Shown here in pieces: positions 17,385 to 60,482 of a DNA stretch of 64,000 nucleotides (positions are counted from its first letter, which is position 1; each line of letters opens with the position of its first letter). The stretch is from an uncultured Gemmatimonadales bacterium (GTDB lineage: Bacteria; Gemmatimonadota; Gemmatimonadetes; Gemmatimonadales; GWC2-71-9). Where the stretch lies: positions 96,001 through 160,000 of the forward strand of contig CAWCVB010000006.1 in the NCBI GenBank assembly GCA_963798915.1. The letters are read 5' to 3'. Both the position numbers and the translations under genes were made by a program. Below the pieces are notes generated by a model, which saw only the letters and a list, made by a program, of their open reading frames with translations, searched no databases and was not told where the DNA came from.

Positions 17385-19859
17385 TTACGCCTTCTGGCTG
17401 GTCAGGGCGCGAAATACGAGGCGTTCCTTGTCTTCGGAGACGTCCACCTCGATCTCATCGCCGCGGCTGATCTCGCCCAGCAGGATCTTCTCGCTGAGCG
17501 GGTCTTCGATGTGCCGTTGGATGGCGCGGCGCAGCGGCCGGGCGCCGAAGTTCTGGTCGTAACCCTTTTCAACGAGGAAGTCGAGCGCGGCCGGCGTGAG
17601 GCGGACCTCGTCGCCCAGGCGCCGCTGCACCTCGCGCAGCAGGATCGTGACAATCTTGGCAATGTGCTCCCGATCGAGCGGATGGAAGACGATCATGTCG
17701 TCGAGCCGGTTGAGGAACTCGGGGTTGAAGACCCGGTTGAGCTCGTCCTTGATCCGTTCCTGCATCCGCTCGAAGTCCTGGCTCGCGTCGCCGCCGTGGA
17801 AACCGAGGCTCTTGCCCGACATGATGTCGCGCGCCCCGACGTTGGACGTCATGATCACGACCGTGTTCTTGAAGTCGATGATCCGGCCATAGTTGTCGGT
17901 GAGGTGCCCCTCGTCCAGGACCTGCAGCAGGATATTGAAGACGTCCGGATGCGCCTTCTCGATCTCGTCGAGCAGCACCACCGAATAGGGCTTCCGCCGC
18001 ACGGCCTTGGTGAGCGCACCGGAATCTTCATAGCCGACGTATCCCGGGGGCGCCCCGATGAGGCGGCTCACCGAGAACTTCTCCATGTACTCGGACATGT
18101 CGACCCGGATCAGCGCCGAGGCATCGGCAAACAGGAAGCGAGCAAGCGCCCGTGCGAGCTCGGTCTTGCCGACGCCGGTGGGCCCGCAGAAAATGAACGA
18201 GCCAATGGGACGGTTGGGGTCCTTCAGCCCAGCGCGCGAGCGCCGGATGGCCCGGGACACGACCTTGATGGCCTCGTCCTGTCCCACCACCGCCTCATGA
18301 ATTTCGTCCTCCATGCGGAGCAGCCGGGTGGCCTCGGCCTCCTGCAGGCGCGTCACCGGAATGCCGGTCCAGCGGGAAACGATGAAGGACACGGCCTCCT
18401 CGTCAATGACGGGACGGCGGGTCTGGCGCTCCTTCTCCCATTCCTCATTGGCCTGGCGGATGCGGCCCTGCAGCTCGCGCTCCTGGTCCCGAAGCGATGC
18501 GGCCCGCTCGAAGTTCTGATCCCGGACGGCCTCCTCCTTCTGGAGGTTGACCTTCTCGAGATCGGCCTTGAGGTCCGCGATCTGGGGCGGCGGCGCCTGC
18601 GAGGCGAGCCGCGCCCGAGCGCCGGCTTCATCAATGACGTCAATGGCCTTGTCGGGCAGGAAGCGATCGGTGATATAGCGTTCGGACAGCTCCGCCGCCG
18701 CCTCGAGGGTGGGATCGGGGATTTCCACCCGATGGTGCTCTTCGTATTTCTTGCGGAGCCCCTTGAGGATTTCGACGGTTTCCGGCACGCTCGGTGGCTC
18801 GACCATCACGGTCTGGAAGCGCCGCTCGAGGGCGCCGTCCTTCTCGATGTACTTGCGGTACTCATTGAGCGTGGACGCGCCGACGCACTGGAGTTCTCCG
18901 CGAGCGAGGGCCGGCTTGAGCATGTTGCTGGCGTCGATGGCGCCTTCCGCGGCGCCGGCGCCAACCAGGGTGTGGAGCTCGTCGATGAACAGGATGATAT
19001 TCTTGTTCTGCGCGATCTCGTTCATCACCGCCTTGAGCCGCTCCTCGAACTGGCCGCGATACTTCGTGCCTGCTATTACGGCGGCCATGTCCAGCGACAA
19101 CACGCGATGGTCGCGCAGCACGTCGGGACACTGGCTGTTGGCGATCAACAGCGCCAAGCCCTCGACGATTGCGGTCTTGCCAACGCCCGGCTCACCGATC
19201 AGGACCGGATTGTTCTTCTTGCGCCGCGCCAGGATCTCCATGACGCGCTCGATTTCCTTGGCACGGCCAATGGTCGGATCCAGCTGGCCCTCGGCGGCGA
19301 GCTGAGTCAGGTCGCGGCAGAAGTGATCCAGCGCCGGCGTCTTGCTCTTCTTTTCGGCCTTGGGCTGCGACGCCTGCTGCGGCGGCGCGCCGCCCGCGCT
19401 CGCCGGCTGCGGCATGTCGCTGCCCAGCAGCCGTAACGTCTCGGCGCGACTGGCTTCCAGGCTGACGCCAGCATCGGTGAGCACCTGCGCGGCGATGCCC
19501 TTCTCCTCGCGGAGCAGGCCGAGCAGGAGGTGCTCGGTACCCACATAGGAGTGATTGAGCTCGCGCGCTTCGGTCATGGCGAGCTCGAGCACCTTCTTGG
19601 CGCGGGAGGTGTACGGCAGGTCGGGGCCAGCCGCCGCGGCAGCTTTCCCCTTCTTGACGGTTTCCTCGATCTTCTGCTGGATGTCGTCCAGGTCCACATT
19701 CAGGTTCTGGAGCACCGCGGCGGCGACCCCTTCGCCCTCGCGGATCAGGCCGAGGAGAATATGCTCGGTGCCCACATACTCGTGGTGAAGGCGAGCCGCC
19801 TCCTCCCGCGCCATCTGCAGGACTTTCCGAACCCGATCAGTAAAATTGTAGCCGTTCAT
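17385..19859 (-). CDS. clpC: ATP-dependent Clp protease ATP-binding subunit ClpC
   Basis: Double Clp-N ([18 protein letters not shown]), Walker A GEPGVGKT and [11 protein letters not shown]-type middle domain, LGF ClpP-docking loop. Confidence 0.96.
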
Positions 19860-19891
19860 TCCTGGTGTCTCGCCTTCCGCCATCGCCCGGA

Positions 19892-20974
19892 CTAGCCGCG
19901 ACGCTCCACGTCATCTTCGAGCACCCTGCGGACCAGCGCGGCGCGGCGAAGCGCTAACGCGGGATCTCCGAGGGGCAGGTTTTCAGCCACGGCCAGGTGG
20001 GCCGGCTGCGACTGGATCAGCAACTTGTTCAGCGTGTACATGCCGATGCCGGGAATCAATCCCAGCCCGACGCCCAGCCGGACGCCGCTCAGCAGGTTCA
20101 TGGCCTCATCGAAGGACAACGTCCGGGCATAGCGTAGCAAACCATAAGCTCGCCAGACCTTGTCCTCGATGACCGTGGGCGCGCTGTGCAGGAGCACCTG
20201 GCGGGCCTGTTCCTCGTATTCGATGACCTGACGCACGACCCGGGCCAGATGATCCAGCAAGTCGGTCTCGCTCTTGCCAAGCGTTGTCTGGTTGGACAGC
20301 TGGAAGAAGTTGCCCACGACCTCGCTGCCCTCGCCATACAACCCACGGAACGTCAGCCCGACCTGAGCCAGCCCCTGCAGGACCCGGGTGACTTCCTTGG
20401 TCAGCACAAGGCCGGGAAGATGGATGAGGACGGATGCACGGAGGCCGGTGCCGACGTTGGTCGGACACGCCGTAAGATAACCGAACTCCGGATGGAACGC
20501 GAAGCCAAGATGGCGTCCCAGCTCGCTGTCCAGGCGGTCCACTTCGGCGTAGGTCTCCGCCAGTACAAACCCGGAATGGAGCCCCTGCAGGCGGAGATGA
20601 TCTTCCTCGTTCAGCATGACTCCGATGCGGCCCTGGTGGAGCAACGCCGCGCCGTAGCGCACCCGTCCGGCTGGCTCCAGGCCGGCCAGTTCCTTGCTGA
20701 TGAGGTGGCGCTCGTGGAGCAGCTGGCGGTCGGGCTCATCCAGCTGATCAAGCCGAAAACTGACAGCGTGCCCCAGCAGGATCGTCTCCAGGGCTGCCTG
20801 CTCTACCGCGCGGAGGATGCGCTCGCGCTCGGCGTCCCCGGTGCGCCCCTGAAAGGGAAACGATGCCAGGTTCCTGGCCAGCCGGACGCGAGTCGAGAGC
20901 ACCAGATGGCTCTGGGGCCCGCTGGCATCCAGCCAGCCCATGCCCCCATCCGCCATCAGTGAGAGATCGATCAT
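19892..20974 (-). CDS. mcsB: Protein arginine kinase McsB
   Basis: STRVRLARNL, NEEDHLR, GYLTACPTNVGTGLRAS; lies between mcsA and clpC. Confidence 0.94.
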   Translation of the reverse strand: MIDLSLMADGGMGWLDASGPQSHLVLSTRVRLARNLASFPFQGRTGDAERERILRAVEQAALETILLGHAVSFRLDQLDEPDRQLLHERHLISKELAGLEPAGRVRYGAALLHQGRIGVMLNEEDHLRLQGLHSGFVLAETYAEVDRLDSELGRHLGFAFHPEFGYLTACPTNVGTGLRASVLIHLPGLVLTKEVTRVLQGLAQVGLTFRGLYGEGSEVVGNFFQLSNQTTLGKSETDLLDHLARVVRQVIEYEEQARQVLLHSAPTVIEDKVWRAYGLLRYARTLSFDEAMNLLSGVRLGVGLGLIPGIGMYTLNKLLIQSQPAHLAVAENLPLGDPALALRRAALVRRVLEDDVERRG

Positions 20975-21441
20975 TGGCGAAGCCGGTCCCTGAGCTCGGC
21001 CGCGAGCTCGAAGTTCTCGGTCTCAACCGCGAGGCGGAGCCGCTCCCGCAGGTCTTCCTCCGCGCTCGGCGTGGCGATCGTTCCACGACTGACGTAACGC
21101 TCGCCGACATGGACGGTCGATCCGTGCAGCCGCCGCACCAGCTCCCGCAGCGGGGCCTCGAACGCCGTCCAGCATTCGGCGCAGCCGAGCCGGCCAGTCT
21201 CGCGGAAATTGGCAAAGGTGGCGCCGCAACCGGGACAGCGCTCCAGCGCGCCGTCCGGCGGCGCTTCCGAGTCGCCAATGGCGGCGAGAAAGCTCCCCAA
21301 GGGCGTCTTCCCGGCCGGGGGTGGCTCGACACCTCGTTCAGCGGCGCAACGTTCGCACAGATGCACGGTCGTGACCTGAGCATCCTCGATTTGCGTCAAG
21401 TGGACGACCGCGTCCCGCTCACCGCAATTTTCACAGATCAT
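20971..21441 (-). CDS. mcsA: McsB activator McsA
   Basis: CENC, CERC, CPGC, GRLGCAECW, HVG, UVR motif ENFELAAELRD. Confidence 0.93.
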   Translation of the reverse strand: MICENCGERDAVVHLTQIEDAQVTTVHLCERCAAERGVEPPPAGKTPLGSFLAAIGDSEAPPDGALERCPGCGATFANFRETGRLGCAECWTAFEAPLRELVRRLHGSTVHVGERYVSRGTIATPSAEEDLRERLRLAVETENFELAAELRDRLRQ

Positions 21442-22142
21442 GATGGCATGCCCTCCCATCCCGGGTGGGGTACCAGCAGGCCGCTCTCCATGGACAGGAT
21501 GCGCTCGGCGCGTCCGGCGAACTCCCGGTTGTGCGTCACCACCACAATGGCCGTGTCGAGCTCGCGTGCGAGCCGAGTAAAGAGCACATGCAGCTGATCC
21601 GCGTGGTGATAATCCAGGTTGCCGCTGGGTTCGTCCGCCAGCAGCAGCACCGGCGACATGGCCAGCGCTCGGGCCACGGCCACACGTTGCTGTTCCCCGC
21701 CCGACAATTGCGCCGGGCGATGGGCCAGGCGGGTGGCCAATCCCAAACCGTCCAGCAATGTCGCCGCCCGATCGCGGGCGTCCGTCGTGGCCCGGCCCGC
21801 GATCAGCATCGGCATCATCACGTTCTCCAGCGCCGAAAATTCACGCAGCAGGTGATGAAACTGGAAGACGAATCCTATCTGATGGTTGCGCAGGGCGGCA
21901 AGCTCTACCGGGTCCAGGTCATCATAGGCTACGCCATTGAGCCGGACTCGTCCCGCCGTCGGCCGGTCCAGCGCCCCAAGCAGCTGCAGCAACGTGCTCT
22001 TCCCGGCGCCACTGGCGCCGACGACCGCTACGAACTCGCCTCGAGCCACATCGAGGTCGACACCGGCCAGCACTTCGATCGGCTCACCATCGCCCCCGAG
22101 AAAGATGCGGCGCAAGCCGCTTGCCTCAAGGATGGGCGTCAT
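21438..22142 (-). CDS. lolD: Lipoprotein-releasing ABC transporter ATPase LolD
   Basis: GASGAGKST, GFVFQFHHLL, LSGGEQQRVAVARAL, ADEPSGNLD; coupled to lolC/E. Confidence 0.9.
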   Translation of the reverse strand: MTPILEASGLRRIFLGGDGEPIEVLAGVDLDVARGEFVAVVGASGAGKSTLLQLLGALDRPTAGRVRLNGVAYDDLDPVELAALRNHQIGFVFQFHHLLREFSALENVMMPMLIAGRATTDARDRAATLLDGLGLATRLAHRPAQLSGGEQQRVAVARALAMSPVLLLADEPSGNLDYHHADQLHVLFTRLARELDTAIVVVTHNREFAGRAERILSMESGLLVPHPGWEGMPS

Positions 22143-23425
22143 TCGTGACGGATCGCTTCCACCGGCGTCAGGCCGGCGGCTGACCACGAGGGGTATATCG
22201 TGGCCACCACCGCCAGCAGCACGCTGGCCGCGACCACCACTGCCACATCGAGGGGCTGGGTGCGCACCGGCAAGTGGTCAATGAAATAGATTGACGGATC
22301 AATCCGGATCATGCCGGACGAATCGACGATGTAGGAGATACCGAGCCCGAGCACCAGCCCGACGGCGGTTCCCGCGAGGCCGATGATGGCGCCCTGCAGC
22401 AGGAAGATCCGGCCGATGGCAGGCGGCGTCAGGCCCATGGCACGGAGAATCCCGATCTCCCGGGTCTTCTCGGAGACGACCATGGTCAGCGAGCCGACAA
22501 TATTGAACGCCGCCACGACCATGATAAAGAAGATGATCAGGCCCATCGCAAGCTTTTCGAGCTGCAGGGCACTGAAGAGACTCGAGTTCTGCGCCTGCCA
22601 GTCGAGGGCCCGGAACGGGTACCGGAGTTCGTCCTCCAGGCGCCGGCCGACTGCCGGCGCGTCGTCGGGCTCGCGGACCCGTACCGCGATGCTGGAGACA
22701 GCGTCGCCCAGTCCGGTGAATTGCTGGGCCGTGGCCAGTGACATCACTACGAACTGGTTGTCGTACTGGAACATTCCTGTGTTGAACAGGCCGGTGACCT
22801 CGAAGCGCCAGAACCGCGGGGTCGCCACGCCCAGTGCCCGGTTCACCTTGGCGGCCGTAGGCGGGATCAGGGTGATGACATCGCCGGTGAACGCATTGAT
22901 GCGGGAGGCGAGTCGCTCGCCCAGGAGGATCGCTCCATCCACACTGTCGACGGTGGTCCGGAATGAGAGGTCTCCCCGGACCAGCGATGACGGCAGCGAC
23001 GTGACCGAGCGGCGTCCAGTATCGGGGTCAACACCCAGGACGTTCACTGCCTCCGCGTAGTCCGCCCCCTTGGTGATCACCGTCTGGGAGATGACCTCGG
23101 GCGCAGCCGCCACGACGTCGGGATCGCGACGGATCCGGCTGACCACGTCGCGCCAGTCGTCCACCCGAAGCCCTGCACCGTAGGTCAGGACCCGCAGGTG
23201 CGGACTGGCCACCAGGATGCGGTCGCGCAAGTCGTTGCGAAGGCCGTTCATGACACCAAGGACGACGATCAGCGCCATGACGCCCACAGTGACGCCGCCA
23301 ACCGAAATCAGGGTATTCAGGGACGCGCCGCGCCGCGCGCGGCGGCCCCGCAGGTAGCGCGCAGCGATCCGGCGCTCCAGCGCGGAGGGCCAGCGGAAGA
23401 GCGAAAAGAGCCCCCCGCCCGTCAT
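22139..23425 (-). CDS. lolC: Lipoprotein-releasing ABC transporter permease LolC/E
   Basis: IAARYLRG, GVMALIVVLGVMNG, EKTREIGILRAMG, PVEAIRHE. Confidence 0.88.
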   Translation of the reverse strand: MTGGGLFSLFRWPSALERRIAARYLRGRRARRGASLNTLISVGGVTVGVMALIVVLGVMNGLRNDLRDRILVASPHLRVLTYGAGLRVDDWRDVVSRIRRDPDVVAAAPEVISQTVITKGADYAEAVNVLGVDPDTGRRSVTSLPSSLVRGDLSFRTTVDSVDGAILLGERLASRINAFTGDVITLIPPTAAKVNRALGVATPRFWRFEVTGLFNTGMFQYDNQFVVMSLATAQQFTGLGDAVSSIAVRVREPDDAPAVGRRLEDELRYPFRALDWQAQNSSLFSALQLEKLAMGLIIFFIMVVAAFNIVGSLTMVVSEKTREIGILRAMGLTPPAIGRIFLLQGAIIGLAGTAVGLVLGLGISYIVDSSGMIRIDPSIYFIDHLPVRTQPLDVAVVVAASVLLAVVATIYPSWSAAGLTPVEAIRHE

Positions 23426-24939
23426 CCATCTTCCGGGCGCATGGCCGGAAAGAGGATAACGTCGCGAATCGATGCCGAGCCGGTCAGCATCATCACCAAC
23501 CGGTCGATGCCGAGGCCCAGCCCGCCCGCTGGTGGCATGCCATACTCGAGCGCCCGAATGTAGTCCTGGTCATAGGGCTGGGTCTCGTCGTCACCCGACT
23601 CCCGCTGGCGGACCTGGTCCTCGAACCGGGCGCGCTGGTCGTCCGGATCATTGAGTTCGCTGAAGGCGTTGGCCCACTCGGTACCATTCACGATCAGCTC
23701 GAAGCGTTCGACCAGGCGTGGATCGTCGCGGTGAACTTTGGCGAGCGGTGAGAGGGCCTTCGGATGGTCCAGCACGAAGGTCGGCTGCACCAGCGATGCT
23801 TCGACGCTGACCTTGAAGAGTTCGTCCTGCAGCTTGGCGCCTCCCCACGGCGACGACTCGCCGGTCGGCACACCCAGCCGCGCCAGCGCCTCCCGCATCG
23901 ATACATCATCAGCGCTACGCACATCCACGCCGGTTCGCTCCAGGATGGCGTCGACGAAGCGCACCCGGGCGAATGGCGGCGAAAAATCATAGGTCTGGCC
24001 GTCGCGTTCGATGGTGGAGCCGCCCGAGGTCGTTCGGACAACACCAGCGACCAGCGCCTCGCACAGCTCCATCATGCCGTGGTAGTCCGTGTAGGCCTGG
24101 TAGAGCTCCAGCATGGTGAATTCCGGGTTGTGCGTCCGATCCATTCCCTCATTGCGGAAGTCATGCCCGATCTCGTACACCCGTTCAAATCCGCCCACCA
24201 GCAGCCGCTTGAGGTAGAGTTCGTCCGCAATGCGCAGATAGAGCGGCATGTCAAGCGCATTGTGATGCGTCACGAACGGCCGCGCCGCGGCGCCCCCGTA
24301 CAGGGGCTGCAGCACCGGGGTCTCCACTTCCAGAAAACCGCGTCCGTCGAGGAAACCCCGGATCCAGGTCAACGCGCGCGCGCGCGTCCGGAAGACTTCA
24401 CGGACATCCTGGCGAACGGCGAGATCAGCATAGCGCTGTCGATAACGCACTTCGGGATCGACGAGCCCGCCGTGGAGAATTTCTCGCCCCTCGACCAGCT
24501 GGCTCTTGCCCCGCGGCAGCGGGCGAAGCGACTTGCTGAGGATGACAATCGACGCGGCCCGGATGGTGATCTCGCCGGTCCGGGTGCGGAAAAGGCTGCC
24601 CGTAACGCCGACATGGTCATCGAGGTCCAGCAGCGCAACCAGTGGCCATTGGTCTCCCAGCGCGTCCTGACGCAGGTACGCCTGGATCCGTCCGGACGCG
24701 TCTTCCAGGTGCGCAAACGCCGTCTTGCCCTGGGACCGCAGCGAGACGATCCGCCCCGCCACGACGACCGAGGGCCCGGCTTCACCGAGGCTGTCGTCCC
24801 ACGCTGCCAGGGCAGCGGCGGCACTGTGAGTCCGGTCAAAGCGGTAGGCGAATGGAAGGATGCCCATGGCGGCGATCGCGTCGCGCTTGGCGCGCCGGTG
24901 CGTCTCGATGTAGCCCGGGTTCTCCACCTGGTCGGTCAC
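23422..24939 (-). CDS. lysS: Lysine--tRNA ligase (class II)
   Basis: YRQRYADL, GGAAARPFVTHHNAL, YLRIADELYLKRL, FRNEG, HNPEF, GLGLGIDRL. Confidence 0.97.
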   Translation of the reverse strand: MTDQVENPGYIETHRRAKRDAIAAMGILPFAYRFDRTHSAAAALAAWDDSLGEAGPSVVVAGRIVSLRSQGKTAFAHLEDASGRIQAYLRQDALGDQWPLVALLDLDDHVGVTGSLFRTRTGEITIRAASIVILSKSLRPLPRGKSQLVEGREILHGGLVDPEVRYRQRYADLAVRQDVREVFRTRARALTWIRGFLDGRGFLEVETPVLQPLYGGAAARPFVTHHNALDMPLYLRIADELYLKRLLVGGFERVYEIGHDFRNEGMDRTHNPEFTMLELYQAYTDYHGMMELCEALVAGVVRTTSGGSTIERDGQTYDFSPPFARVRFVDAILERTGVDVRSADDVSMREALARLGVPTGESSPWGGAKLQDELFKVSVEASLVQPTFVLDHPKALSPLAKVHRDDPRLVERFELIVNGTEWANAFSELNDPDDQRARFEDQVRQRESGDDETQPYDQDYIRALEYGMPPAGGLGLGIDRLVMMLTGSASIRDVILFPAMRPEDG

Positions 24940-26040
24940 GCGGCTGTCCCCCCGAACTGCTTCAGATACGCCTCGATGAACTGCTCAAGATCGCCATCCA
25001 TCACACGCTGGACGTCGGTCACCTTCACTTCGGTGCGATGATCGTTCACCATGGTGTAGGGCTGGAAGACATATGACCGGATCTGGTTGCCCCAGGAGAT
25101 GTCGGTCTTGGTGGCCTCAACCGCGGCCTTTGCCGCCTGCTGCTCCTCCAGCTTCCGCTGGTAGATGGCCGCACGCAGCATCTTCATGGCCGTATCCTTG
25201 TTCTTGTGCTGGCTGCGCTCCTGCTGGCACGAGACGACCAGGCCGGTCGGGATATGGGTGAGGCGCACCGCCGATGAGGTCTTGTTGATGTGCTGCCCAC
25301 CCGCGCCCGACGCCCGGAAGACATCCATCTTGATGTCCTCATCGCGCAGGTCCACCTCGATGGTGTCGTCGATGTCAGGGTACACGAAGACGGAGGCGAA
25401 GGAGGTATGGCGACGGGCCTGCGAATCATACGGCGAGATGCGGACCAGGCGGTGCACGCCTTTCTCAGCCTTCAGGAACCCATAGGCGTACTCGCCGGTG
25501 ATTTCCACCGTGGCGGACTTGATGCCGGCTTCCTCACCGGCGACCATGTCGAGCACACGGACGCCGAAGCCCTTCCGTTCCGCCCAGCGCACGTACATCC
25601 GCATGAGCATCTCGGCCCAGTCCTGCGACTCGGTGCCGCCGGCACCCGGATGGATCGTGAGCAGCGCGTCACGCCGATCGTCGGTCCCACGCAGCATGGT
25701 CTTGAGCTCAAAGCCGGCGACCCGTTCGCCAAGCCGGACGACTTCCGCCTCCAGCTCGCCCTGCATGGATTCATCCGGTTCCGTGGCGAGCAGCTCTGCC
25801 ATCTCCCGGGCAATGGTGACGCGCCCGTCGATTTCCTCGAACGGCGTCACCCACCCCTTGAGCTGCTTGACCTCCTGTACCAGTTGACGCGCACGCTCCT
25901 GATTGGTCCAGAAGGCCGGATCGGCCTGCTGTGCCTCGAGATCGGCAATGCGGGCGCGCTTGGCGTCCAGGTCAAAGAAAACCTCGAAGTTCGGCCACAC
26001 GCGTGGCGAGGTCGGCGATCAGCTCGGTCAGGTCGGGCAT
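24936..26040 (-). CDS. prfB: Peptide chain release factor 2 with programmed +1 frameshift
   Basis: ATG 26040 gives MPDLTELIADLATRVAELRGFL then CTT-TGA-C (25977-25971); +1 frame continues DLDAK...; GGQ, RHTSF, WGNQIRSYV, anticodon-mimic SPY. Confidence 0.96.
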
Positions 26041-26058
26041 CTATGCTCCCAGTCAGCT

Positions 26059-26101
26059 AAAACGTGAGCCGCCTGTCCGCCCGGCGGCGGAGAGGCGGCT
26101 C
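26059..26101 (-). terminator. Terminator-like hairpin between the zinc-ribbon gene and prfB
   Basis: GAGCCGCCT-C-TCCGCC / GGCGGA-C-AGGCGGCTC followed by ACGTTTT. Confidence 0.55.
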
Positions 26102-26125
26102 CGGGTTTCCCAAAGATAGACCGCC

Positions 26126-26956
26126 CTAGAAGATCTGGCGACCGTCCGCAAGAATTTCATTCAGTGCGTCGTGGAAATGTGTCGTCGAATCGGCGATCTC
26201 CTTGCCGACCTGGTCCACATACTCCTCCCAGCTCTTCTTGATTTCCTCATCGAACAACGTCTTCAGACTCCCGTCCCGCAGACCCTCCCGTCGCTTGGCC
26301 GGGTGGTAGACCACCATGTCGGAAATGAGCGCGCGAGCGAGCCGCCGCGCCTTCTGGGACGGATCCTGGGAAAGAAATGGATTGACGGCCCGTCGCGGCT
26401 CAGGCGCGGGCCCACGCGGTGCCGCCGGCGGTGCGGCCGGTCGGGGCGGCACACCAGCGGGACGGGGCATGGCGGGCGGCGGCGCCATCGGCCGCGCCGG
26501 TGCCGCCGAAAAGCCCTCCGCGCGGCCCGGAGTGGCAATCGGCGGTCGCGGCGCCGCAGCCGCCGGCCTCGGCGGCTCAACAGGCGGCTCGGGGCGCGGA
26601 GCCGGCCGCGGTGGCTCCGGTGGCGGGGCCGGACGCTCAGGCGCGGCGGCCGCGGGCGGCTGCGCGGCCGTCGGCGCTGGTGGCGCCTGCATCGCGGCTG
26701 GCTCGACCCTGGGCTCCCGCGCGACCGGCGGTGGCGCAGGCGCCGAGAGCACCGGCTCGAGCGCATCACCGGAGGGACCGGCGGTCGGAACGGCAGCCGG
26801 AAATCTGGGGGCGTCGCCCCCCGACGCGGGCGCTGCCTCGCGACTGACCGGAAAGATGGCGCTGCAGACGGCGCATCGCGCCCGCACGCCCTGCTCCGGC
26901 ACCTTGGCCGGATCGACCCGGTACATGGTGGCACAATTGGGGCACGTCACATTCAT
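26126..26956 (-). CDS. MJ0042-type zinc-ribbon protein with Pro/Ala-rich linker and helical C-terminal domain
   Basis: MNVTCPNC...RARCAVC, long P/A/R-rich tract, C-terminal KARRLARALISDMVVYHP...SWEEYVDQVG. Confidence 0.85.
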   Translation of the reverse strand: MNVTCPNCATMYRVDPAKVPEQGVRARCAVCSAIFPVSREAAPASGGDAPRFPAAVPTAGPSGDALEPVLSAPAPPPVAREPRVEPAAMQAPPAPTAAQPPAAAAPERPAPPPEPPRPAPRPEPPVEPPRPAAAAPRPPIATPGRAEGFSAAPARPMAPPPAMPRPAGVPPRPAAPPAAPRGPAPEPRRAVNPFLSQDPSQKARRLARALISDMVVYHPAKRREGLRDGSLKTLFDEEIKKSWEEYVDQVGKEIADSTTHFHDALNEILADGRQIF

Positions 26957-26966
26957 CGCTGATTCC

Positions 26967-27935
26967 TCATCGCTGTTCCCGCCGCCCAGCACCGTCCCCG
27001 CTCTGCCGCCGGTCGACCACGAAGATCGAGCCTGGCAGGGTCTTGGCGTAACTCTTCATTTCAGTGGCAAGCTCACTGACCTGGGCCGGATGCATGAATT
27101 GCCGGTGCCGGTTGGTCACAATGCCGATCGACAGCGTCATGAGTGGCACCCGATGGAGCTGGCCCCGCCGATCCTTGCCGAAGAAGTAACCGGCCCGGCG
27201 ATCCTGCTCATTGTACTGGAGCGGGATCAATGTGTCGAAGACCGAGAGGACTTCGGTGCAGACATTGTGGATCTCGCCTCCGGGGATGACGAAGATGAAA
27301 TCATCACCGCCGATATGACCGACGAAGCCACTGCGCCCCGTCATGCCCTTCACCACGTCGTGAAGGATGCGCGACAGCAGGTAGATGACCCGGTCGCCGT
27401 CATAGTAGGAGTAGCGGTCGTTGAACTCCTTGAAATGATCGAGGTCGGCGTAACAGACCGCAAACTCGCCGGTCTGTTCCAGCCGGCGGCGTATCTCACG
27501 CTCGATCTCGGTGGTGCCTGGCAGCCGGGTGGAGGGATGCACGGAGACATCCCGCTCGGTGCGAAGCGACATCGCCGAGATGCGTGCCTCCTGCTCGGCC
27601 AGCGAGAAGAGTCCGGTGAGGACTTCATCGGCACCGGCCCGGAACCAGGCCTCGACCGATTCGGCCTCATGCGTGGCGATCAGGGCGGTCACTGGCACGA
27701 TGGCGGTGAACGCATCGCTCTTGAGCCGTGCAACCAGCTCGACGCCGGCGGAGCCGGAGGCGTCGGCGTTCACCACCAGGATGCCCGGGTGGCCGCGAAG
27801 GATGATTGACTCGACTTCGTCGGCCGAGCTGAACTGCTTGACCGGCAACGCCTGCTGCTGCGCCCAGCGCTCGATCAGCGCGGGGACGGGGCCGCCATCC
27901 GGCGAAAAGAAGAGAATCGTCGGGCGAGTCCGCAC
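26967..27935 (-). CDS. Atypical receiver-like domain plus GGDEF domain (putative diguanylate cyclase)
   Basis: YADLDHFKEFNDRY...GD, GHIGGDDF, LSIGI; N-terminal REC-like segment ending AGADEVL. Confidence 0.85.
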   Translation of the reverse strand: MRTRPTILFFSPDGGPVPALIERWAQQQALPVKQFSSADEVESIILRGHPGILVVNADASGSAGVELVARLKSDAFTAIVPVTALIATHEAESVEAWFRAGADEVLTGLFSLAEQEARISAMSLRTERDVSVHPSTRLPGTTEIEREIRRRLEQTGEFAVCYADLDHFKEFNDRYSYYDGDRVIYLLSRILHDVVKGMTGRSGFVGHIGGDDFIFVIPGGEIHNVCTEVLSVFDTLIPLQYNEQDRRAGYFFGKDRRGQLHRVPLMTLSIGIVTNRHRQFMHPAQVSELATEMKSYAKTLPGSIFVVDRRQSGDGAGRREQR

Positions 27936-27967
27936 CCAGTCCCTCAGGTAAGAGACGAAATCACGCT

Positions 27968-27996
27968 AACTTACGAGGCCGCCACGGGCAAGTCAA
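27968..27996 (-). promoter_or_regulatory. Sigma70-type promoter of the GGDEF/zinc-ribbon operon
   Basis: TTGACT-N17-TAAGTT on the minus strand, 32 nt upstream of the GTG start. Confidence 0.65.
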
Positions 27997-29825
27997 ACAA
28001 AGTAGGCTGCAATGGCGATCAGGGCATAGACCGCCAGGAGCATGACACCCTCGAACCAGTGCGACTCGCCATCGGTCGTGCCGATCGCGGTGACCAGGAC
28101 GGCCAGCCCAAGGGCCATGACCTCGAAGGGTGCAAACACCAGGTTCATGTCGCGGCCCATGAGGACCCCTGCAAAAACCAGCACGGGAGCCACCAGCAAG
28201 GCGATCTGGGTGCTGGAACCGAATGCTATCTGCAGCGACAGGTCCATCTTGCCTCGCCGGGCCATCATGATGGCCGAGGCATGTTCCGCCGCATTGCCGA
28301 TCAACGGAATGATGATGAGGCCCACGAACATGGTGCTGAGGCCCAAGGCTCCCCCGGCCCCCTGCACACTCTGCACCAGCACCTCGGCAAGAAAGGCGAC
28401 TCCTGCGGTCGCGATTGCCAGCACCAGCACGGCCTTGCCCACACCCCAGGCCCGTCGCGGAATTTCGTGCGGGTCGCCACCCATCAGCCAGCGGTGGGTC
28501 TTCAAACTGAAGAGCAGCGAAAATCCATACGTGATTATCAGGATGACAGCGACCGCTTCCGACAGATGCAGCTCGGTCAGACGCTGGTTGGCTGGATGCG
28601 ATGCGTGGAACAGTGCCGGAAATACGAGTCCGACAACGGCTGCGGCAAGCATGCCGGCGCTGATTCCCGGTGCCGCTCGACCGAAGCGCAGTTCACTCGA
28701 GCGCACGCCGCCAGCGACCAGCGACAGTCCCAGGATGAGGAGCAGGTTGCCAAGGATGCTTCCGGTGATCGAATACTTGACGAGCTCGATCTCCCCCGCC
28801 TGGAGGGCCATGAGGCCGAGGATCAGTTCCGCGGCGTTGCCGAACGTGGCGTTCAGAAGCCCACCGATGGTGGGCCCCGTATGGGCCGCCAAGTGCTCCG
28901 TAGCGTCGCCCATGAACCCAGCCAACGGCACTACCGCGACACAGGCCGCCAGGAAACAGAGCAGCGGGGCCTGGCCGGTATACTGGGCCCACACGGCAAC
29001 TGGGAGCGCCCCAAGCAGCACACGCCGCCAGAGTGGCCCCCAGGAGTCGGGATCCTTACGGAGGTGTTTGAGCGGCCGGCGCGACCTGACGACCGGCTCC
29101 TCGCTCTCAGCCGAGGAGGCGAGTGGCGCTGCGGCAGCCGGGCGCGCCTCGGGCCTCTGGCGCGGCTCCGGTCGCGGCTCTTCGGCAACCCGCTCGCGGC
29201 GACGCTCGGCCTTGGTCCTTCGGCTCCTCCGCTCAGAAGGTTCACGCCGCGAGCGGGTCTCGGACGATGCCTGCGGCACCGAGTCCGCCGCCGGCTCGGC
29301 CTCCGCTTCCGGTGGCTTAGGGGCGTCGACATCAGGGGCGACTGACCCCGCGCTGCCACGCCGCTCTCGCTGCCGCACCTCCCGGGGCAACGGCTCGAGA
29401 CCGGTAGCGGCATAAATCGCGTCTCTCACGGCGCGGGGAGAGGCACCGAGGTCGCCCAGCACCTTGGCCAGGGAGCCACGCGGTTCGGCAAAGGCGGCGA
29501 TAAGCAGGTGGGTGGTGTCGGGCTCGGTGGCCCGGCCGGTCGCCTCGCGCGTGGCCGCGGCCGCGAGGCGGCGACCCTGGCTCGACAGGACCAGTTCGCC
29601 CTCTGGCGGAGGTGACTTCCCCGGCCTGATGCCAGCCTGGATACGTTCGCGCAGGTCCTCGACGGCAACGCCGGCACTTCGGACAGCGGCTTCGGCCGCC
29701 GGGGTGGCCAGCGCCACGAGCAGCAGGTGCTCGGCCGTGATGGCATCGCTGCCGCGGGCCACGGCCTCGGTCCGCGCAGCTTCGAGAAAGGCCAGCTCCG
29801 CCGGGCCTCCTGGCGGCTCAGTCAA
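27993..29825 (-). CDS. Ca2+/H+ antiporter (CAX/ChaA family) fused to an N-terminal double Clp-N domain
   Basis: CAX repeats [41 protein letters not shown]-terminus AEHLLL / TTHLLIA parallels this window's ClpC N-domain; TTG start overlaps the trm112-like gene. Confidence 0.85.
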
Positions 29826-29991
29826 GCGGCTTCGCCTCGTCAACGAGCATGATCGGAATGCCGTCCTCGACGGCATACACGAGGCGGCAGGCATGGCAGA
29901 TCAGTGATTCCGGTGGCGCCTCGTGGTACTCGAGCTCGCCCTTGCATGCGGGGCAGACGAGAATTTCCAGCAACTCGGCGTTGAGCGTCAT
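29818..29991 (-). CDS. Trm112/YcaR-like small protein
   Basis: [14 protein letters not shown]...[24 protein letters not shown]. Confidence 0.92.
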
Positions 29992-30860
29992 GTCTTCTCC
30001 GAATCTGAAACAGGAAAACCAAGGCGCGAGAGCGCAGCCGCGTTGCGGCGCCACTTGGGCAGCACTTTGACCCAGAGATCGAGGTACACGCGCCCTCCGA
30101 GCAGATCCTCGAGCCGGCGGCGTGCGTGTTCCCCGATGGCCTTGATGGTGCGTCCGCCGCGGCCCACCACCATGCCCTTCTGGGACTCACGTTCGACATA
30201 GAGCGTCACTCGAATGTACACCGGCGATTCCGCCTCCCGATACTCCTCGACCTCGGCGGCAAAGCCATAGGGCAATTCGTCCTGCAGGAACTCGAACGCG
30301 GCTTCCCGCAGATACTCCGTGGCGAAGAATCGGACGGGCTGGGTGCCGATGTCGTCAGGGTCGTACGCGAACTCCCGCTCCGGCAACCGCGCGCGCAGTT
30401 GCGCCAGGAGCTCCGTCAGCGATCCCGGCTCCCGGGCGCTGACAACCAGCGCCGCCTGTGCCAGCTGCCGGCGGGCGTCGTCCGGGACGAGGTCCGCCTT
30501 GGTATAGACCGTGATCACCGGCGCGTGCGGAGGTGCAGTCAGCCGAGCCGAGCTCATGAAAGGCGGCGCAGGAGCGTCCGGCGCAGGATGGACATGCACG
30601 ATCAGGTCCGCTGCGTCTATCCCGGCCTGTGCCGCGGCCATCATGCGCGCCTGCATCAGGTAGGCAGGATCCATCAGCCCCGGCAGATCCACGAACACAT
30701 ACTGGGTGTCACCATCGGTCAGCAGGCCAGTCACGGGCAGCCGGGTAGCCTGCGGTCGCGGGCTCACAATAGCCAGATGAGAGCCAACCACCGCATTCAT
30801 CAACGTCGACTTGCCGGCATTGGGAGCGCCGGCGAGTGCAATCCGTCCGCAGCGTGTCAT
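29988..30860 (-). CDS. era: GTPase Era
   Basis: [27 protein letters not shown] domain [19 protein letters not shown]. Confidence 0.94.
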
Positions 30861-30895
30861 GCGGATAACGTAACAGCGCGATTACACTTCTCAGA
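30861..30895. promoter_or_regulatory. 35-bp divergent promoter region, both transcripts probably leaderless
   Basis: Plus strand TACACT-N7-ATG(30896); minus strand TGn-TACGTT-N6-ATG(30860); no SD for either gene. Confidence 0.6.
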
Positions 30896-31804
30896 ATGGC
30901 CACTCCCGTTTCCGCACCTCAATTGGTCGTGCTCGCGGCCGGCCTGGGCCGGCGCTTCGGCGGCCTGAAGCAGCTGACCGGAGTCGGCCCTGGCGGCGCC
31001 ACCCTGCTGGAATATTCGCTGTTCGATGCGCGCCAGGCCGGCTTTGGGCGAGTGACGTTCGTCATTCGGCCCGAGATGCAGGGCGACTTTCGGAGTTTCG
31101 CAGAAGGCCGCCTGCCGCCGAGTCTCGAGTGGAATCTTTGCCTTCAGCGTATGGAGGACGTGCCGCCGGGGAGCGTGACACCGGGCGGCCGCAGGCGGCC
31201 ATGGGGTACCGCGCATGCGGTGCTGGCCGCCGAGTCCAGTGTGAGCGGCCCGTTTGGCGTCGTGAATGCCGATGATTTTTATGGACGCGAAGCCTTTCAC
31301 GCCATGGCGTCCTTTCTGGCGTCGGACCGACCCGACTGGGCGCTTGTGGGCTATGAGCTCGGCGCGACCCTGTCACCGGCAGGTGGGGTCAATCGCGGAC
31401 TGCTCGCGCTGGCCGACGATGGCACCCTCGCAAGTATCGAAGAGGTCATGGACCTGGTCCGTACAGAGGAAGGCGCCATTACCGGACTGGGCGAGGCGGG
31501 CCCGCGCATCGTGAACGGCAAAGCGCTCGTCTCCATGAATTTCTGGGGGCTGGAGCCGTCGGTCTTTGGCGGGCTCCGATCGGGATTTCGCCGGTTCCTG
31601 GAAGGCGCCGACATTGAGCACGATGAATACCCGCTTCCTGTGGCGATGCAGGACCTGATCCAGGACGGCGAGCGCCGAATAGCGGTGCTCGCCAGCGCCA
31701 GCCGCTGGTTTGGCGTCACCTATCACGAAGACCTTGTCGCAGTGCGAACGGCGCTCGAGCAGCTCGTCGCATCCGGCCACTATCCGGAGCGGCTGTGGAG
31801 CTGA
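30896..31804 (+). CDS. Sugar-1-phosphate nucleotidyltransferase family protein
   Basis: LVVLAAGLGRRFGGLKQ, PWGTAHAV, VNADDFYG, VSMNFWG, WFGVTY. Confidence 0.88.
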   Translation: MATPVSAPQLVVLAAGLGRRFGGLKQLTGVGPGGATLLEYSLFDARQAGFGRVTFVIRPEMQGDFRSFAEGRLPPSLEWNLCLQRMEDVPPGSVTPGGRRRPWGTAHAVLAAESSVSGPFGVVNADDFYGREAFHAMASFLASDRPDWALVGYELGATLSPAGGVNRGLLALADDGTLASIEEVMDLVRTEEGAITGLGEAGPRIVNGKALVSMNFWGLEPSVFGGLRSGFRRFLEGADIEHDEYPLPVAMQDLIQDGERRIAVLASASRWFGVTYHEDLVAVRTALEQLVASGHYPERLWS

Positions 31805-42418: not shown

Positions 42419-42536
<118 letters not shown>

Positions 42537-42630
42537 GTTTTCGAGCTGAGCGCGAGGCGCTCAGCGCTTAGCGCTTGACTAACTGCGGACGGATGGTGAT
42601 CAGGAAGGAATCCAGAACAACAAGTAGAAG

Positions 42631-45601
<2,971 letters not shown>

Positions 45602-45658
45602 CATAGTTCTCATTCGTGGTGTGGATTCCTCACACCTGATCACACATCCATCCGTCAG

Positions 45659-45670
45659 TTGTCAAAGAGC
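45659..45670 (-). promoter_or_regulatory. Spacer boxA antitermination element
   Basis: GCTCTTTGACAA, identical to the leader copy at 47414-47425. Confidence 0.8.
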
Positions 45671-45757
45671 GAGTGAAGTGAGTGAGGGCACGGAGTGCGG
45701 GCGACTCTCGAGACTCTTTCGTGCGACCGGCGAACCGGCCGACTACTCGAGATCTCC

Positions 45758-47285
<1,528 letters not shown>

Positions 47286-60384: not shown

Positions 60385-60482
60385 TGGCGGGAGTGTGTGG
60401 GAATCGAACCCACCGGAGCCGCCAGTGGCGCCTCCGACGCGATTTTGAAGATCGGCCGGGCCACCAGACCCGTTCCACCCCC
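60385..60482 (-). tRNA. selC: tRNA-Sec (anticodon UCA)
   Basis: 98 nt; 8-position acceptor stem, 6-bp D-stem CGGGTC/GGCCCG with 4-nt loop, CTTCAAA anticodon loop, long variable arm, GTGGG-TTCGATT-CCCAC, discriminator G plus encoded CCA. Confidence 0.93.

Follow-up and report, generated by a model that had tools for sequence, protein, structure and literature searches.

What might a ClpC-type N-terminal domain do on a membrane exchanger? The question is posed by a single gene on the minus strand of a 64,000-nucleotide stretch of DNA from an uncultured Gemmatimonadales bacterium (contig CAWCVB010000006.1, positions 96,001 to 160,000; hereafter, the window), whose product joins a Clp_N domain through a disordered tether to a predicted Ca2+/H+ exchanger of the CAX family. 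A first interpretation of this gene, made from the letters and their open reading frames (ORFs) and referred to here as the sequence-only reading, had proposed that the nearby McsB could phosphorylate the linker and switch transport through the Clp_N domain. The analysis reported here points, with a probability that we place near 0.35, to a tethered regulatory sensor, in which a pocket of the N-terminal domain would bind a ligand of the phosphoarginine (pArg) type, or another anionic one, and change either the exchanger's activity or its lifetime.

Architecture of the fusion protein

The N-terminal part of the protein (hereafter, the N-domain) is a double-repeat Clp_N domain. The Pfam family Clp_N (PF02861) matched in two stretches at 50.6 bits, against a cut-off of 20.7, and a phmmer search of the PDB returned the N-terminal domain (NTD) of ClpC1 (E=9e-7) and the pArg-bound NTD of Bacillus subtilis ClpC (5hbn, E=1e-3). 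An AlphaFold2 (AF2) model was built from an alignment of 85 homologues (A1, to which all residue counts out of 85 refer) and reached a mean predicted local distance difference test score (pLDDT) of 78.5 and a predicted template modelling score (pTM) of 0.59; in it, residues 1-148 form eight helices, from residues 8-23 to residues 130-141, at a pLDDT of about 95. Foldseek matched this part to some 30 structures of ClpC and ClpC1 NTDs, with template modelling scores (TMt) of 0.70-0.76 (0.74-0.76 for 6pbs, 8ibp and 5hbn) and root-mean-square deviations of about 3 Å. The domain is 27% identical (40/150) to the NTD of the window's own ClpC, and within the fusion family it shows a mean top-residue frequency of 0.61 with 0-1% gaps, as against 0.28 and 35% gaps for the linker. 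No AAA family was found in the fusion protein by Pfam or NCBIfam scans, the ClpK, ClpB and ClpA models reach it only at residues 33-165 with 9.5-15.9 bits, and it lacks the architecture of a Clp/Hsp100 unfoldase (ClpA/B/C).

For the membrane part, the NCBIfam equivalog TIGR00378 matched residues 293-630 of the 633-residue frame described below at 327.8 bits (cut-off 211.15), and Pfam Na_Ca_ex (PF01699) scored 129.8 bits in two stretches. Sequence matches in the PDB comprised YfkE (4kjr, E=2e-65), VCX1 (4k1c, E=2.9e-65) and plant CAX1 (E=7e-59), and Foldseek matched CAX structures at TMt 0.78-0.86 (0.78 for VCX1, 0.85 for YfkE). The AF2 model places a short helix at residues 265-282 and ten further helices after it, giving an 11-helix layout, and the CAX core has a mean top-residue frequency of 0.81. 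From homology and model together, the gene product is predicted to be a canonical CAX-family Ca2+/H+ exchanger with 11 helices. The N-terminus of the protein would be cytoplasmic, because a signal peptide is lacking and an Arg-rich stretch stands ahead of the first helix. A complex prediction of residues 1-150 against residues 245-610 scored 0.00 against a mark of 0.32; it was run without controls and carries no weight either way.

Between the two parts lies a tether rich in Pro, Arg, Ala and Glu, the least conserved part of the fusion protein, whose 98 residues in the window include 20 Arg, 16 Glu, 14 Pro and 17 Ala and whose pLDDT falls below 50 over residues 150-201, 211-229 and 231-241. 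Across the family it measures 22-161 amino acids (aa), with a median of 95, and averages 21% Pro, 17.6% Arg, 15% Ala and 11% Glu. A basic, Trp-containing segment follows it just before the membrane; residues 251-270 were modelled at a pLDDT of 77-89, and residues 263-285 show a top-residue frequency of 0.68 in A1. The idea that the N-domain docks on this segment throughout the family was discarded, as the segment is conserved in the window's subclade only and differs in the deeper fused lineages.

The open frame extends from 27993 to 29894 and would encode 633 aa if counted from its first ATG. That ATG, at 29894, is located inside a small Trm112/YcaR-like ORF read in a different frame. A TTG at 29825 is favoured as the start because the stop of the small ORF overlaps it and because homologues share the same beginning: the TGA overlaps the TTG by 8 nt (TTGACTGA, 29825-29818), and homologue N-termini coincide with the TTG (MTEP/LTEP). 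The database form of the protein (P0002) has 610 aa and likewise begins at this TTG. The sequence-only reading had described one uninterrupted ORF of about 610 aa at 27993..29825, with a double Clp-N repeat at its N-terminus, an Arg/Glu/Pro-rich linker after it and a complete CAX with both GNAAE repeats; the database protein, the two PF02861 stretches with their eight-helix fold, the composition of residues 151-248 and the TIGR00378 match with both motifs at 85/85 bear out each of these elements, and the lack of a Clp_N profile match, an outcome it had named as speaking against the fusion, did not arise.

Distribution and descent of the fusion

Both Pfam domains were present in 119 of the 120 best whole-protein homologues (48-74% identity), whose named members are all proteins from metagenome-assembled genomes of Gemmatimonadales or Gemmatimonadota, labelled only 'calcium/proton exchanger'. 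When the N-domain alone was searched against proteins of similar length, 26 matches resulted, each of them with the same fusion. Homologues always split into two genes, another outcome that the earlier interpretation had considered damaging, are not what was found: no split two-gene form was seen in an N-domain search among shorter proteins, which gave a single match, a 128-aa piece from an 817-bp contig. The same single frame was seen in 17 genome loci. Since the two domains occur together in 119 of the 120 best homologues, the fusion is real and not an artefact of annotation.

The best 80 CAX loci of a genome collection were also compared; Gemmatimonadota account for 31 of them, and the remaining 49 belong to other phyla, among them Cyanobacteriota, Bacillota and Actinomycetota. 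None of the 49 loci outside Gemmatimonadota (0/49) had a Clp_N match beside the CAX gene. Among the 31 Gemmatimonadota loci, 18 are fused, 7 are unfused (L008, L021, L023, L025, L036, L038 and L061) and 6 are cut by contig ends, two of the latter (L005 and L024) retaining part of the N-domain or tether. The loci L001 and L002 share 66-83% amino-acid identity with the window, a divergence at which synonymous sites would be saturated. One locus counted as fused, L004 (2445-4281), has a frame break between its Clp_N and CAX parts, through assembly error or decay, and L008 (434-1588), in which the N-domain is gone, starts with a GTG directly at the first membrane helix.

The CAX parts of the window and 79 loci (80 rows, L002 being omitted with its CAX part cut) were placed on a quick maximum-likelihood tree, which groups all 18 fused rows, 5 rows with N-terminus unknown and the unfused L008 in one clade of 24 rows, with a Shimodaira-Hasegawa-like approximate likelihood ratio test (SH-aLRT) support of 99; L008 is nested within it beside the frame-broken L004. 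The other 6 unfused genes and 1 unknown form a separate clade of 7 rows (support 100), which carries its CAX gene at the same chromosomal position. The simplest reading is that the domain was gained once, at a fixed locus inside Gemmatimonadota, and then lost once, and the fusion architecture has been maintained under constraint across at least 50% sequence divergence.

The loss in L008 and the frame break in L004 lend some substance to the notion of a neutral accident or artefact, in which two genes were wrongly joined or a functionless domain precedes an exchanger translated from an internal start. An in-frame GTG is indeed located at 29021-29019 (Val269), within the first-membrane-helix region, and the unfused L008 gene begins with GTG at the equivalent position. 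No clear Shine-Dalgarno sequence was seen upstream of this GTG, and the residue there is not conserved as a start: among the 85 homologues it is Leu in 34, Val in 31, Ile in 15, Ala in 4 and Met in 1. A second product without the N-domain may be made from this codon. Such an accident would also have to accommodate the recurrence of the same single frame in 119 of 120 homologues from independent assemblies and in the 17 genome loci, the failure to find split forms among close relatives, and an N-domain far better conserved than the tether that follows it; we therefore consider it very improbable.

Derivation of the domain from the lineage's own ClpC NTD is only plausible, because ClpC is not the nearest Clp_N relative for most members. 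Outside the family, the N-domains of L007 and L014 match the window's ClpC best, with 37-40% identity from ClpC residue 9, ClpC itself probably starting at Met9; for the other 16 N-domains (15 loci and the window), it ranks between 7th and 123rd. Some members of the family begin with M-N-G-Y or M-T-G-Y, as does the window's ClpC.

Ligand pockets and the role of the N-terminal domain

Two pArg pockets serve as reference for the N-domain. In the accessible passages of a study of ClpC (PMC12583610), E32 is assigned to pocket pArg2, E106 and T7 to pocket pArg1, and R122 to the vicinity of pArg2, with pArg1 mattering most for ClpC activation. The accessible text on ClpC2 (PMC13345244) describes a Clp_N domain that senses pArg outside an AAA+ protein with a single pocket, made of the helix 1 N-terminus and loops 2-3 and 5-6 with two Thr contacts, and reports that one Thr-to-Ala change in this pocket abolished pArg binding. 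By the pseudo-twofold symmetry of the domain, we infer that pArg2 comprises the helix 1-2 loop (T31, E32), the helix 5 N-terminus (T81) and the helix 6-7 loop.

The residues of the pArg2 type are conserved in the fusion family: E32 in 85/85, H33 in 83/85, Thr or Ser at 81 in 82/85 and S82 in 83/85, together with a helix 6-7 loop of the form E/D114-P115-R116-G117, in which R/K116 and G117 are each present in 85/85, and a basic residue at 121 (R/K) in 81/85. The E-H motif and the basic residue 116 occur in the window protein and in 17/17 loci compared. The other site has drifted. Position 7, equivalent to ClpC T7, is Ser in 33, Gly in 31 and Thr in 0 of 85 sequences (G7 in the window), and position 105, equivalent to ClpC E106, is Glu in 58/85, the window having T104-T105; the second-repeat motif across loci reads TSH, PRH, AQQ, ADD, PEL and others. 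The alignment confirms the caveat, raised before, that the second repeat has T-T-H where ClpC has T-E-H. Judged from these positions, the pArg1-type pocket (Thr7 with Thr105/Glu106) is not kept, and the family would retain exactly one ClpC ligand pocket, that of the pArg2 type.

The conserved fusion, the constraint on the N-domain, the one kept pocket, the ClpC2 precedent and the syntenic kinase together suggest the tethered sensor named at the outset. The N-domain would act as a regulatory sensor, not as a catalytic or unfoldase part. Its single conserved pocket would bind a phosphoarginine-type or other anionic group, presented either in trans on McsB-marked proteins or by the protein's own Arg-rich tether, and occupancy would change the activity or lifetime of the exchanger, whether by activation or by inhibition. 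Ca2+/H+ exchange would thereby be tied to the McsAB-ClpC proteotoxic-stress system, and the second pocket would have been allowed to decay, as mycobacterial ClpC2 keeps a single pArg pocket as sensor. That the Clp_N domain is a true phosphoarginine reader, with McsB phosphorylation directly controlling Ca2+/H+ exchange in a diderm phylum, is a stronger claim and one we hold to be unlikely.

The kinase gene lies 7.0 kb from the CAX stop on the same strand, in line with the distance of about 7 kb put forward by the sequence-only reading, and its position is conserved. The fusion gene belongs to a block of the order era - trm112-like - CAX - response regulator/GGDEF-like - zinc-ribbon - prfB - lysS - lolC - lolD - mcsA - mcsB - clpC, kept in every Gemmatimonadota locus as far as the contig reaches (block loci L003, L004, L006, L008, L009, L012, L013, L015, L017, L018, L021, L023, L025, L029, L038, L041 and L061). 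The genes mcsA-mcsB-clpC stand downstream in all 17 Gemmatimonadota loci with enough flank, 11 fused and 6 unfused. The neighbourhood of McsB is a property of this phylum-level block, housekeeping genes included, and is independent of the fusion. Co-occurrence with mcsB, which had been suggested as a check on the link, was dropped as a test: with mcsAB-clpC downstream of CAX genes of either kind, it does not discriminate.

Several points weigh against the sensor. The placement of T81 and of the 114-117 loop in the pArg2 pocket derives from symmetry. Position 31 is Ala in 74/85 sequences, including the window, and Thr in 3/85, with Thr in 11/17 loci compared (deeper lineages); by the same symmetry Thr31 should touch the phosphate, so that its loss weighs against pArg binding. 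The E-H motif is nearly invariant (at least 90%) in an alignment of 90 diverse Clp_N proteins (A2), and its conservation may be structural rather than ligand-related, being part of the general Clp_N profile. McsB adjoins unfused CAX genes too (6/17 loci), and within the fused clade one lineage has lost the domain (L008) and another is frame-broken (L004).

The replacement of Thr31 by Ala in most members also suits a pArg-independent module, in which the Clp_N domain would take as its partner an adaptor, a different protein or a portion of the exchanger itself, perhaps as an autoinhibitory element, and regulate transport like the plant CAX1 N-terminus. Clp_N is promiscuous in its partners. An exhaustive phmmer search with the N-domain gave 895 relatives at E<=1e-3, of which the best 150 all carry Clp_N; among these best 150 of 895, partner domains include HTH_17 (in the layout of ClpC2), 23S_rRNA_IVP/bAvd, BFN nuclease, NUDIX, alpha/beta hydrolase, KAP NTPase, TIR_2, PspC, DinB, a cytidine deaminase domain and UVR. 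Tandem arrays are frequent among the relatives, with up to 10 matched Clp_N stretches. In the top 60, Na_Ca_ex occurs only in P0143, with P0127 and P0140 resembling fragments of fusion-family members. Clp_N is thus mobile, serving as a module for interaction or sensing, and the CAX fusion, the sole one with Na_Ca_ex in this sample, is one more effector choice. As an aside, Clp_N domains away from unfoldases are frequent and very modular (proteins P0128-P0276), and several of their partners recall defence or stress systems.

Plant CAX1 adds a precedent for such a module: in the accessible part of one report (PMC13591097), its first 36 residues autoinhibit the exchanger and are targeted by phosphorylation and by partner proteins, and the PDB contains wild-type and phosphomimetic CAX1 structures (9vsa, 9vsc, 9vsd). 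The N-domain is, by description, unlike that short plant region; moreover, a generic interaction leaves the retention of one pocket and the decay of the other unexplained, and a tether varying from 22 to 161 aa is poorly suited to a fixed docking geometry. We regard a pArg-independent module as possible, though on balance doubtful.

The tether itself bears most directly on the model of the sequence-only reading, a phospho-switch in cis in which McsB phosphorylates tether arginines and the Clp_N domain of the same chain captures them, gating the exchanger. The Arg content of the tether (20 of 98 residues in the window, 17.6% in the family) and its predicted disorder, which would make it accessible to a kinase, agree with this model, and so does a conserved block of co-directional genes that encodes the reader domain, the kinase and the candidate substrate together. 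No Arg position is conserved in the tether, however, at a top-residue frequency of 0.28, and short tethers have few or no basic residues: that of P0113 has 23 residues with 0 Arg or Lys, and that of P0116 has 24 with 5 basic. Disorder rich in Arg, Pro and Ala may be expected in high-GC genomes, and the window has 59-69% GC. With the same pocket caveats (Ala at position 31, an E-H motif general to Clp_N) applying here, we judge the switch in cis decidedly unlikely: of the original proposal the fusion, the Arg-rich linker and the nearby McsB stand, and it is undercut by the unconserved linker, the lost pArg1 pocket and the occurrence of McsB beside unfused CAX genes.

A disordered segment beside a folded domain can be read in yet another way, as a degradation handle: the N-domain would dock McsB or a ClpC adaptor, the tether would be marked, and ClpCP would extract and degrade the exchanger, so that its abundance and not its gating is controlled. 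Long disordered segments next to folded domains are good engagement sites for the unfoldases of AAA+ proteases, and the tether would suit such engagement; clpC and mcsAB also lie in the same gene block. ClpC is not known to extract membrane proteins with 11 helices. The ClpC NTD binds MecA, MdfA and McsA/McsB, according to the accessible passages of PMC12583610, but the N-domain has diverged to 27% identity with the window's ClpC NTD, and may not have kept such adaptor contacts. We find this handle distinctly improbable.

Gene block, literature and known systems

Table 1. Coordinates of the Clp_N-CAX gene, of the parts of its product and of neighbouring features in the window.
Feature	Residues	Coordinates	Strand	Basis or remark
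Whole Clp_N-linker-CAX gene		27993..29825	(-)	610 codons + stop; TTG start 29825-29823
ClpC-type double-repeat Clp_N domain, eight helices	1-150	29376..29825	(-)	Pfam, phmmer, AF2, Foldseek
Disordered Pro/Arg/Ala/Glu-rich tether	151-248	29082..29375	(-)	AF2 and composition
Basic/Trp segment before membrane	249-264	29034..29081	(-)	Alignment and AF2
First membrane helix (MR/TM0 equivalent)	265-282	28980..29033	(-)	AF2 helices 265-271 and 273-282
CAX core M1-M10, two alpha-repeats	283-610	27996..28979	(-)	TIGR00378, Na_Ca_ex, Foldseek
First GNAAE signature	329-333	28827..28841	(-)	Invariant, 85/85
Second GNAAE signature	510-514	28284..28298	(-)	Invariant, 85/85
Trm112/YcaR-like zinc-ribbon small ORF, 57 aa		29818..29991	(-)	Between era and fusion gene
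Downstream gene, receiver-like and partial GGDEF domain		26967-27935	(-)	Pfam
McsA-like activator		20971..21459	(-)	UVR motif; NF053706 102.6 bits vs cut-off 210
McsB-like protein arginine kinase		19892..20974	(-)	Pfam ATP-gua_Ptrans 201 bits
ClpC		17385..19883	(-)	NTD carries both G-T-E-H motifs
12-gene co-directional block, then bamA in window		17385-30860	(-)	Gene-order comparison

The block genes in the window (Table 1) are co-directional and overlap or are separated by short gaps, which is compatible with co-transcription. The 8-nt overlap of stop and start suggests translational coupling of the Trm112/YcaR-like ORF with the fusion gene; this small ORF scored 43.5 bits with NCBIfam Trm112_arch and 42.2 bits with YcaR, both under their cut-offs, and occupies the same place in the Gemmatimonadota loci with upstream flank, whether the CAX gene is fused or unfused. 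A scan of 26000-31500 for promoters and terminators gave nothing usable: the single promoter-like site falls within the downstream gene, and the 5 terminator-like sites compare with an expectation of 2.6 +/- 1.9. The McsB-like protein scored 371.1 bits with the NCBIfam protein arginine kinase model (cut-off 385). That a diderm phylum should have an McsAB-ClpC module is worth noting on its own.

The receiver/GGDEF-like gene adjoins CAX in the Gemmatimonadota loci with downstream flank. Pfam covers positions 17-90 of the 161-position GGDEF model in its product, which has the signature GGDDF and may be a degenerate, non-catalytic cyclase. In L021 (1715-3675) and L061 (7096-8957), two extra genes stand between trm112 and an unfused CAX of 359 aa; by eye, their products look like a secreted beta-barrel-like (outer-membrane) protein and a second secreted protein. 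Elsewhere in the window, the minus strand carries a complete rRNA operon (5S, 23S, 16S; 42419-47285) and a tRNA-Sec gene (60389-60482, 66.8 bits), the latter implying that the organism is likely to synthesize selenoproteins.

No description of the Clp_N-CAX architecture was found in the full-text literature, and among the matches listed for CAX in Gemmatimonadota or Gemmatimonas there was nothing on the fusion gene; the accessible part of a calcium study of G. phototrophica (PMC9862903) has no mention of an antiporter or of Clp. The fusion thus appears to be undescribed, its proteins being already present in public databases under a generic name. What appears new is a CAX exchanger with a new, putatively regulatory head and a Clp_N domain with a new effector, both parts being of known kinds.

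Understanding of phosphoarginine signalling beyond proteolysis is just beginning, a 2026 preprint having put forward ClpC2 as a repressor that responds to pArg, and little is known of how bacterial CAX exchangers are regulated. A conserved natural fusion makes both matters open to direct testing: whether signals of proteotoxic stress extend to ion homeostasis, and by what means a secondary transporter can be controlled by a soluble sensor that is flexibly tethered to it. The fused clade, the unfused clade, the one secondary loss and the tethers of 22-161 aa constitute natural controls. If the domain did read pArg, this would be the first case of a pArg signal acting on ion transport, rather than as a degradation tag or a transcriptional cue, and the first of a pArg2-type pocket alone carrying function; if it proves not to bind pArg, a membrane transporter still joins the list of Clp_N effectors.

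The two halves of the protein have distinct counterparts among known systems. From about residue 265 to residue 610 it shares the fold, the 11-helix layout and both GNAAE repeats of YfkE (Bacillus subtilis; 4kjr, 4kjs) and VCX1 (yeast; 4k1c), but its M5-M6 loop is GGDPH and not an acidic stretch, and it adds about 264 residues of domain and tether to an exchanger that in YfkE is without an N-terminal domain. Plant CAX1 (9vsa, 9vsc, 9vsd), whose membrane core is homologous (at the E-value given above), is likewise a CAX exchanger, one with a regulatory, phosphorylatable cytosolic N-terminus, as described in the accessible part of PMC13591097; the two are set apart by description, a 36-residue peptide in the plant protein as against a folded 150-aa Clp_N domain on a tether.

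On the side of the N-domain, the NTDs of ClpC and ClpC1 (5hbn with pArg; 6pbs, 8ibp) have the same eight-helix double repeat and share the first-repeat E-H, the helix 5 N-cap Thr/Ser and several basic positions. Unlike ClpC, the fusion protein is without AAA+ modules, has lost the pArg1 residues and mostly has Ala for Thr31, and in its helix 6-7 loop E-P-R-G replaces the E-E-K-G of the window's ClpC. Its closest parallel in design is perhaps the mycobacterial and Streptomyces ClpC2 (9p2p, 8ad9), in which, according to the accessible text of PMC13345244, a Clp_N domain is likewise found off the unfoldase, joined to an effector and equipped with one pArg pocket. The effector of ClpC2 is a DNA-binding helix-turn-helix domain, whereas that of the fusion protein is a transporter, and ClpC2 keeps a pocket of the pArg1 type (its T99 corresponding to T7), whereas the Gemmatimonadota fusion appears to keep the pArg2 type.

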